Source: Ostreococcus lucimarinus (Eukaryota). From it: DNA of 64,000 bases. Below are positions 53,845-57,506 of the stretch, piece by piece (positions within the stretch are counted from its first letter, which is position 1; every line of letters starts with the position of its first letter). The notes beneath the pieces are model-generated. The model did not search any database. It saw only the letters and a program-made list of their open reading frames with translations, and was not told where the DNA came from. The translations under genes were made by a program, and so were the position numbers. Where the stretch lies: the NCBI GenBank assembly GCA_000092065.1, contig CP000589.1, one strand, 5' to 3'.

Positions 53845-54711
53845 TCACGCGTCGACGCGACGCGCGGCGACGAAAATCGAACCCTTGTCGCCTCTGCCCG
53901 TGCGCAGATCGTCGTCGACGTAGGTCGTCTCGATCCAGCCGCGCGGATCGACAAAGTCGAGCGACGCGCGCAGCGGCGGCAGCGACCCTATTCGAAGCTC
54001 CACCGAGCGAAAGCGCACGTTCAAACGCGTCGGATGCGCGACGGGATCATCGAACGCGCACTCTCCCGCGAGATTCACACCGAGATTCACGCCGAAAGGT
54101 CCTTCGAATTCGGCCCGATTGGACACCGTCGCCGCGGCGACGTCGATGTCTTGATAGTTCCCAATCGAACGCGCGAACGACTTTTCCGACTTTTCCGACT
54201 TTTCCGACTTTTCCGACGCCACCGAGCGCCCCGAACTCCCTGAGGCTTCCGTGAGCGCCGCGCCCAGAGCGCCCTCGCGTCGTCGTCTCGCCTCCTCCGC
54301 GGCGTCGTCCGCGGCGACCGACGCCAAGAGACTCCACGCGCCCGAGACCGACGCCCCCAGCGCCGCCGCGTCGTCCGGCGCGCGTCCCGCGCGCTCCAGC
54401 GCCTCGACGAGGTCCATCAGCGCGCGCGCGTCGTCCGCCGACGCGCGTCGTCCGCCTCGCGTGCGCGCGCAAAGTCGTTTCAGCGCGCGCTTCGTCGTCT
54501 CGACGTCTTCGCTCGACGCCGACGCCGCGACGCGCGACGCGCGCGCGACGCGCGACGCGCGCGCGCGCGCGGCGCGACGCGACGCGTCCAGCGCGCGGCC
54601 TCCGTCTCGCGCGCCGCGCGCGCGATCGGCGCTCGCGGTCGCGCGCATCGCGCGGCGCCGACGTGTGGCGCCGCACTCGACGCCTCGCGAAGCGTCGCGG
54701 CGTCGCGGCAT
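53845..54711 (-). CDS. fibrillin/plastid-lipid-associated protein (PAP) family, with plastid transit-peptide-like leader
   Basis: Conserved fibrillin C-terminus (TYVDDDLRTGRGDKGSIFVAARR) and core (EGPFGVNL...LRIGSLPPLRASLDF). Arg/Ala/Ser-rich ~65-aa leader. Start tentatively at the ATG at 54709-54711; ATG 54648 is an alternative. The longer ORF upstream is antisense to the neighbouring transporter. Confidence 0.7.
   Translation of the reverse strand: MPRRRDASRGVECGATRRRRAMRATASADRARGARDGGRALDASRRAARARASRVARASRVAASASSEDVETTKRALKRLCARTRGGRRASADDARALMDLVEALERAGRAPDDAAALGASVSGAWSLLASVAADDAAEEARRRREGALGAALTEASGSSGRSVASEKSEKSEKSEKSFARSIGNYQDIDVAAATVSNRAEFEGPFGVNLGVNLAGECAFDDPVAHPTRLNVRFRSVELRIGSLPPLRASLDFVDPRGWIETTYVDDDLRTGRGDKGSIFVAARRVDA
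54181..54216. repeat. (CTTTTCCGA)4 tandem nonamer, coding
   Basis: Seen directly; encodes SEKSEKSEKSEKS within the fibrillin gene (minus strand). Confidence 0.9.
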
Positions 54712-55762
54712 GCCGGCGTCGAGCGATGCGCCGTCGACGACGCCCGCGACGCGCGACGCCGACGCGCGGTCGCGGCGCGTCGTCGCCAAGGCGCTCGCGG
54801 ATAACGCGCTCGTCGCGCTGTGGGTCGGGACGAGCGCGATCGTCATCTTGTTCAATAAATACATCCTCACCGCGTACGGGTTCCCGTTCCCGGTCGCGCT
54901 GACGATGACGCACATGCTGTTCTGCTCCGTCGTGGCGTTCGTGATCGTGCGCGCGCTGAAACTGGTGCCGGCGAGCGAGGGGGTGACGAGGGAGGTGTAC
55001 GCGACGAAGATTACGCCGATAGCGGCGCTGTTCGCGGTGTCGCTGTGGGCGTCGAACACGGCGTACGTGTATTTGAGCGTGGCGTTCATACAAATGCTGA
55101 AAGCGCTGAGCCCGGTGGTGGTGTACGCGATCGGGTGTTCGATAGGCGTGGAACGGTACTCGCACGAGCGATTGGCGAACATGGCGGTGGTGACGCTCGG
55201 GGTGATGATCGCGTCGTACGGGGAGCTGAATTTTAATTTTTTTGGGTTCGCGGTGCAGCTCGTGGCGGTGCTCGCGGAATCGTGTCGAATCATCGCCGTG
55301 CAGCTGGTTTTGGGGAAAGCAAATCTGAAGTTGAACTCGATCACGACGCTGTATTACGTTTCGCCCGCGTGCTTTGTGTTTTTGATCGTCCCGTTCGCGA
55401 TGCTGGAGCTTCCCAGGCTGGCGTACGGCTTGGAGGTGACGCATTCGGTGCGTTACTCCGCGGGCATCATGCTCGCCAACGCAATGTGCGCGTTCGCTTT
55501 GAATGCGGTGATTTATTTGCTCATCGGTCGAACGAGCGCGTTGACGCTCAACGTGGCGGGCGTGGTGAAGGACATGTTCCTCATCGGCATCAGTTCGGTG
55601 ATTTTCGAGGCGCCGATATCTGCCACGCAGCTCGTCGGTAGTTTGATCGCGTTCGGGGGCGTGTGCTACTATAATTACCGCAAACTGAACGATGCGTTCG
55701 CGGCGGCGGCGGCGGCGCCGACGCAAGGCGAAGTCGGGCCGAAGCGAGACAGTCAGGCTTAG
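54710..55762 (+). CDS. TPT/nucleotide-sugar transporter family membrane protein (DMT superfamily)
   Basis: About 10 TM helices with the TPT-family pattern: WVGTSAIVILFNKYIL, FIQMLKALSPVVVYAIG, LTLNVAGVVKDMFLIGISSVIFEA. The first ATG before TM1 is 54710 (MPASSDAPS). The frame is open further upstream but contains no earlier ATG-to-TM1 alternative. Confidence 0.8.
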   Translation: MPASSDAPSTTPATRDADARSRRVVAKALADNALVALWVGTSAIVILFNKYILTAYGFPFPVALTMTHMLFCSVVAFVIVRALKLVPASEGVTREVYATKITPIAALFAVSLWASNTAYVYLSVAFIQMLKALSPVVVYAIGCSIGVERYSHERLANMAVVTLGVMIASYGELNFNFFGFAVQLVAVLAESCRIIAVQLVLGKANLKLNSITTLYYVSPACFVFLIVPFAMLELPRLAYGLEVTHSVRYSAGIMLANAMCAFALNAVIYLLIGRTSALTLNVAGVVKDMFLIGISSVIFEAPISATQLVGSLIAFGGVCYYNYRKLNDAFAAAAAAPTQGEVGPKRDSQA

Positions 55763-55831
55763 GGTGTCGGTTAGTAGTGTATCCTTCCGTAGAATTTCGT
55801 ATAACACGCGTGATTGTTACAAATTTGTGTT

Positions 55832-57463: not shown

Positions 57464-57506
57464 TGTGCGCCACCGCGCGCCGTCGTCGGTCCATCGCGGC
57501 GTCGCG

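Follow-up and report, generated by a model that had tools for sequence, protein, structure and literature searches.

The divergent PAP/fibrillin gene (minus strand) and TPT/DMT-family transporter gene (plus strand) of Ostreococcus lucimarinus CCE9901 very probably form an ordinary head-to-head pair. The transporter would start at ATG 54710 and the fibrillin at ATG 54648, with a noncoding shared promoter and leader region of 61 bp in between, and the CATG palindrome at the transporter start would be incidental. All positions refer to the window, i.e., the whole stretch of 64,000 nucleotides that was analysed. An earlier note on this DNA had proposed that the start codons of both genes overlap within the CATG. 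This overlap was not borne out, since the 63 nt from 54648 to 54711 behave as noncoding DNA in orthologous loci. The pair is an already known kind of feature and tight divergent spacers are ordinary here. From a biological perspective it matters little, because very short spacers and overlapping leaders of divergent genes have been documented for Ostreococcus and Micromonas. Its value lies in annotation, as the likely fibrillin start is set at 54648.

Gene identities and synteny

The region has a GC content of 71.5%. On its plus strand, the transporter coding sequence (54710..55762, 350 aa) yields from ATG 54710 a protein identical to O. lucimarinus CCE9901 XP_001419646.1/ABO97939.1, which the reference genome annotates as 'DMT family transporter: phosphate/phosphoenolpyruvate'. 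The protein scored 95 bits against the Pfam profile TPT (PF03151, cut-off 30) and covered profile positions 6–291 of 291. Its family membership is thus taken from the HMM, and by annotation it is a putative phosphate/phosphoenolpyruvate carrier. The best-supported model of the fibrillin (53845..54648, minus strand, 267 aa) begins with MRATASADRARG and matched PAP_fibrillin (PF04755) with 57.9 bits (cut-off 22, E = 1.8e-15), a domain that is present in all 16 of the 16 fibrillin homologues from our protein search. With both Pfam matches above cut-off, the gene identities given in the earlier note hold, and so does the divergent orientation, which is kept in orthologous loci.

The left neighbour of the pair is Bud13 and the right neighbour a MAP-kinase-like kinase, both on the minus strand. 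The order MAPK, TPT, fibrillin, Bud13, RPL6e, with TPT and fibrillin divergent, is kept in at least seven Mamiellales lineages. To compare the loci, we traced them via the fibrillin homologues, which gave at least six lineages besides the window (L009/L010, L016, L011/L023, L012, L013/L015, and L014). The closest informative relatives share only about 57% fibrillin identity with O. lucimarinus, and the protein search gave no relatives between 58% and 96% fibrillin identity.

The reference protein set of O. lucimarinus apparently lacks the fibrillin itself, and pointing out this apparent gap is a further gain for annotation. Neither its homologues nor its 90% cluster contain an NCBI or UniRef member, whereas the adjacent transporter does carry NCBI accessions. 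Exact look-ups of the fibrillin models starting at 54846, 54711, 54648, and 54417 gave no match in a collection of 15 billion proteins.

The CATG palindrome and the open reading frames

Direct reading of the local sequence gcggCATGccgg gives C54709, A54710, T54711, and G54712. The transporter ATG (54710–54712, plus strand) and an antisense ATG (54711 to 54709, minus strand) thus have A54710 and T54711 in common, and the two ATGs share the central AT of the CATG (54709..54712) exactly as had been described. The transporter frame remains open upstream to about 54158 (184 codons) and has 54710 as its sole in-frame ATG; the next plus-strand ATG upstream in any frame is found at 54146. For the antisense ATG the description needs correction: 54711 is indeed in frame with the fibrillin, but it is not the 'first ATG' of that frame, which stays open over 211 codons of the transporter gene, to 55344, and contains six further in-frame ATGs there (54846, 54864, 54915, 55089, 55182, and 55293). 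Downstream of 54711, the next in-frame ATG is 54648.

The third codon positions of the transporter and fibrillin frames coincide, with a GC3 of 0.84 in sense and 0.87 in antisense direction. Because both frames share GC-rich third codon positions, neither stops nor GC3 delimit the two genes. This supports the earlier explanation that GC3 bias keeps the frames open far into each other, and the earlier statement that stops cannot delimit either gene was correct: both frames are stop-free deep into the neighbour. Spurious antisense ORFs are the textbook reason why ORF boundaries fail to delimit genes in GC-rich genomes, and the open frames seen here do not differ from those of other GC3-rich genes. 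A third ORF on the minus strand (54047–55807, 586 aa, zero stops), which lies in the codon-aligned antisense frame, spans the whole transporter gene and is clearly a spurious product of GC3 bias.

How often should such a palindrome be met? In the window, 168 of 630 ATGs on the plus strand (27%) and 168 of 694 on the minus strand (24%) are embedded in CATG. Within the surrounding 21 kb, 5 of 15 called gene starts lie in CATG, and the antisense ORFs that open there comprise 2–288 codons. If the probability of CATG is multiplied by 1/3 for being in frame and by 0.86 for the lack of a stop in 20 codons of 82%-GC DNA, a joint chance of 0.07–0.10 per tight divergent pair results. Hence the CATG at 54709–54712 is a real sequence coincidence, yet not more than chance. 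By extrapolation, dozens to hundreds of like coincidences might be present per genome, if O. lucimarinus resembles O. tauri. The palindrome would simply stem from a C at position -1 of the transporter ATG, as in about a quarter to a third of the ATGs here, and the antisense ATG would be in frame with the fibrillin by accident. No stop lies between this ATG and the fibrillin because the spacer has 82% GC.

Start of the transporter gene

In L009, L011, L012, L013, L014, and L016, the transporter N-terminus comprises 25–38 residues before TM1 and begins at the homologous place. L015 was left out of this comparison as its contig ends inside the transporter gene. In-frame stops occur 3 (L016), 9 (L012), and 20 codons (L014) upstream of the transporter ATG. 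Since the start position is conserved in six other lineages and upstream stops are found in three of them, ATG 54710 is, as judged from these alignments, a well supported start that requires no 5′ intron. This agrees with the earlier note, which had placed the transporter start at 54710, and with the reference annotation.

We also considered whether the 563 nt without ATG that precede the transporter start are a sign of a long 5′ UTR purged of upstream ATGs. This idea was rejected, as the stretch was significant neither in a shuffle (P = 0.06) nor in a synonymous-codon shuffle (P = 0.63). Prokaryote-style gene callers applied to metagenomes over-extend the transporter into the fibrillin gene, giving products that begin at non-ATG codons and measure 365, 382, or 433 aa (L013 2998, L019 156–1457, proteins P0003/P0005/P0010).

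Start of the fibrillin gene

A fibrillin start of the form MRA(T/A/V)(A/T)(S/T) is kept in all five of five Ostreococcus-like lineages: MRATAS in the window (54648, minus strand), MRAVTT in both L009 (3013) and L016 (1281), MRAATT in L011 (3001), and MRATAT in L012 (2881). In L011 and L016, this MRA start is the sole in-frame ATG of the open fibrillin frame. Gene calls on eight near-identical O. lucimarinus-like metagenomic contigs begin at the equivalent of 54648 as well; such calls are automatic predictions and not evidence of start use. Consequently, 54648, which lies 63 bases inside 54711 and had been named before as the fallback, is most likely the fibrillin start as far as the conserved sequence tells: the MRA start is conserved in five lineages and the extension is not. 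A comparison of N-termini with orthologues, proposed in the earlier note as a check, thus favours 54710 for the transporter and 54648 for the fibrillin. Read from 54648, the N-terminus is rich in Arg, Ala, and Ser, consistent with a plastid transit peptide; it would be a typical, putative one.

The 21-codon in-frame extension MPRRRDASRGVECGATRRRRA (54649..54711, minus strand) would link the CATG-derived ATG to the fibrillin. CATG is found at the transporter start in L009, L016, and L011 as well, but the antisense ATG matches the fibrillin frame solely in L009 and the window. The frames differ in L016 and L011, where the ORF opened by this ATG would cross the true fibrillin start and run to +12 and +240 nt, respectively. 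L012 lacks the CATG and has a spacer of 259 bp with stops in both frames. Because scanning ribosomes would meet an ORF that overlaps the true start, the CATG-derived ATG in L011 and L016 would be inhibitory. Therefore, fibrillin transcripts of these two lineages should begin within the spacer, on the fibrillin side of the transporter ATG. By homology, this suggests that transcription of the O. lucimarinus fibrillin might start inside the spacer, too.

The evolution of the spacer points in the same direction. Orthologous TPT-fibrillin spacers range from 47 to 259 bp and are barely alignable, with a column identity of 42%. Identity between L009 and L016 amounts to 93% for the fibrillin and 97.5% for the transporter; the indels between them measure 9, 3, and 3 bp in the fibrillin coding sequence and 4, 6, and 1 bp in the spacer, which is 85 bp long in L009 and 96 bp in L016. 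An extra upstream ATG in L009 (MASE-M) is ACG in L016. The L011 spacer of 111 bp has the same length in L023, an independent long-read assembly. In the window, GC is flat over the codon positions of the 63 nt of the putative extension (0.81/0.81/0.76). Taken together, the orthologous loci show that the stretch from 54648 to 54711 (63 nt) behaves like a noncoding spacer, and we judge from sequence comparison that the 21-codon extension is not conserved coding sequence. While open frames and GC3 fail to delimit genes in GC3-rich genomes, the phase of indels between close relatives can. The nine O. lucimarinus-type sequences compared were identical over 54560–54800 and thus invariant across the spacer.

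Alternative readings of the locus

A true head-to-head overlap of the coding sequences is unlikely. In this case, the fibrillin mRNA would start within the transporter coding sequence, and ribosomes would initiate at AUG 54711 alone or, through leaky scanning, at 54648 as well. This would extend the fibrillin transit peptide by 21 residues and make the AT of the CATG common to both coding sequences; if both AUGs were used, two transit-peptide isoforms would result. ATG 54711 is indeed in frame without an intervening stop, likewise in L009, its context (-3 G, +4 C) is at least as good as that of 54648, and the extension is Arg-rich like the remainder of the presequence. Overlapping UTRs, which concatenate RNA-seq assemblies, were reported to be common in O. 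tauri (PMC4378021), and on any mRNA that starts beyond 54711 this AUG would be the first one reached by scanning ribosomes, so that the 21 residues would be added. However, the frame is coupled in only two of the four CATG-bearing lineages, where one third is expected by chance, and the coupling was lost between L009 and L016, which are 93% identical, via indels that are not multiples of three. Furthermore, the extension of the window cannot be aligned with that of L009, the extension lacks a codon-position GC signal, and the inhibitory overlapping uORF that the same ATG would open in L011 and L016 implies transcription from downstream of it. That some fibrillin transcripts of O. lucimarinus start beyond 54711 and encode the 21-residue longer presequence is improbable, and a lineage-specific overlap of coding sequences in O. 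lucimarinus and L009, with AUG 54711 used alone or together with 54648, is quite unlikely. Compared with 5′-5′ overlapping protein-coding genes, the coding sequences here would overlap by 2 nt if both CATG ATGs were used. However, the frame of the extension is not conserved, being lost in L011/L023 and L016 and interrupted by stops in L012, so that the 21 codons do not appear as conserved coding sequence and the overlap is most likely only apparent.

It is very unlikely that the fibrillin starts later, at ATG 54417 ('MDLVEAL...'), or has an undetected 5′ intron or a non-AUG start. Several automatic metagenome calls are proteins of 184–187 aa that begin with MDLVEAL, but these turned out to be artefacts of callers, assembly, or adapter. 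L019 and the window do not differ in DNA sequence; here the caller had stretched the transporter to 433 aa, which forced a truncated fibrillin. L020, L021, and L017 carry deletions of 20, 150, and 2 bp in a stretch of more than 80% GC, L017 in addition has T>G errors, one of them at an otherwise universally conserved Trp, and L022 ends in a Nextera adapter. Moreover, K74, L77, C81, A82, and G87 (K..L...CA..G), invariant in seven lineages, lie upstream of MDLVEAL; because these invariant residues must be translated, the fibrillin cannot start later than this motif and a start at 54417 was excluded. Such a start would also leave a plastoglobule-type protein without presequence. A 5′ intron, which the earlier note had allowed for in either gene, is unneeded, since both N-termini are collinear with intron-free orthologues. 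It is still less probable that the transporter model is wrong through a 5′ intron or another start, so that the juxtaposition vanishes. Only the frame open for 184 codons upstream and the non-ATG calls of 365–433 aa speak for this, whereas there is no upstream in-frame ATG, six other lineages have the homologous start, with stops 3–20 codons upstream in three, and the model agrees with the reference annotation.

The region from which the MDLVEAL artefacts arose, i.e., the fibrillin presequence region (54540–54650), has more than 80% GC, is rich in CG repeats, and is assembly-fragile in metagenomes. In L017, the 2-bp deletion affects a (CG)n run and the T>G errors are clustered; in L022, the adapter is fused to the sequence. 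Such faults fit the under-coverage of roughly 80%-GC sequence that was reported for O. tauri Illumina data (PMC4378021).

A compact divergent spacer

In the favoured arrangement, an ordinary head-to-head pair with the starts at 54710 and 54648, the divergent spacer (54649..54709, 61 bp, 82% GC) would act as compact shared bidirectional promoter and 5′ leader region. Both transcription starts would lie in or very near the spacer, leaving 5′ UTRs of a few tens of nt. The two core promoters would then overlap each other, possibly the leaders too, and the pre-initiation regions would also overlap the leader or the first codons of the neighbour. According to the earlier note, the promoter and 5′ UTR of each gene would have to be located in the coding region of the other if both gene models were right. 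With the fibrillin starting at 54648 this is too strong, as UTRs of up to 61 nt fit into the spacer; what stands of it is that the core promoters would still overlap each other.

With 61 bp between the best-supported start codons, the pair falls well within the definition of head-to-head genes (<1 kb between starts). In the surrounding 21 kb, the called starts of divergent pairs are 22, 43, 61, and 105 bp apart, and the intergenic gaps as a whole range from 22 to 283 bp. For O. tauri, 2,288 bidirectional (head-to-head) transcript pairs were described (PMC4035068). In Micromonas, the average intergenic distance is 167–211 nt, and transcripts exceed their CDS by only about 145 nt on average, so that UTRs are very short (PMC4815162). 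Head-to-head pairs of the compact Mamiellales genomes are likewise divergent; their start codons are tens of bp apart, and there is no space for two separate promoters. Nothing substantial sets the present pair apart from them, and its synteny across at least seven lineages is a modest extra. Logan contigs were retrieved as well; because they span several genes on both strands, they are unusable as transcript evidence.

Further observations on the locus

A motif, CGTCTG(G/A)CGCGCG, was observed in the spacers of L009 (2960–2972), L016 (1217–1229), L011 (about 2922–2934), and L012 (about 2700), 33–78 nt from the transporter ATG. The O. lucimarinus version is only loose, ACGTCGGCGCCGCGCG. In the window, the motif is not enriched (4 matches vs. 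4.5 expected), and it could either be a locus-specific element or reflect shared ancestry.

Next to the pair described here, the ATGs of the MAP-kinase-like gene (57463, minus strand) and of a PRMT-like methyltransferase (57507, plus strand) form an adjacent, still tighter divergent pair 43 bp apart (57464–57506). An organellar-type RNA polymerase and a 145-aa ORF were called 22 bp apart (approximate window coordinates 50630/50653).

L011-type fibrillin models from long assemblies (P0024, P0030, and P0031) are truncated or frameshifted. Within the fibrillin gene, a 9-bp tandem repeat, TTTTCCGAC, occurs four times on the plus strand at 54182–54217 and reads as (SEK)4 in the minus-strand protein. 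Among environmental O. lucimarinus-type contigs, the number of (SEK) copies varies from 2 to 4, which results in fibrillin proteins of 261, 264, and 267 aa.
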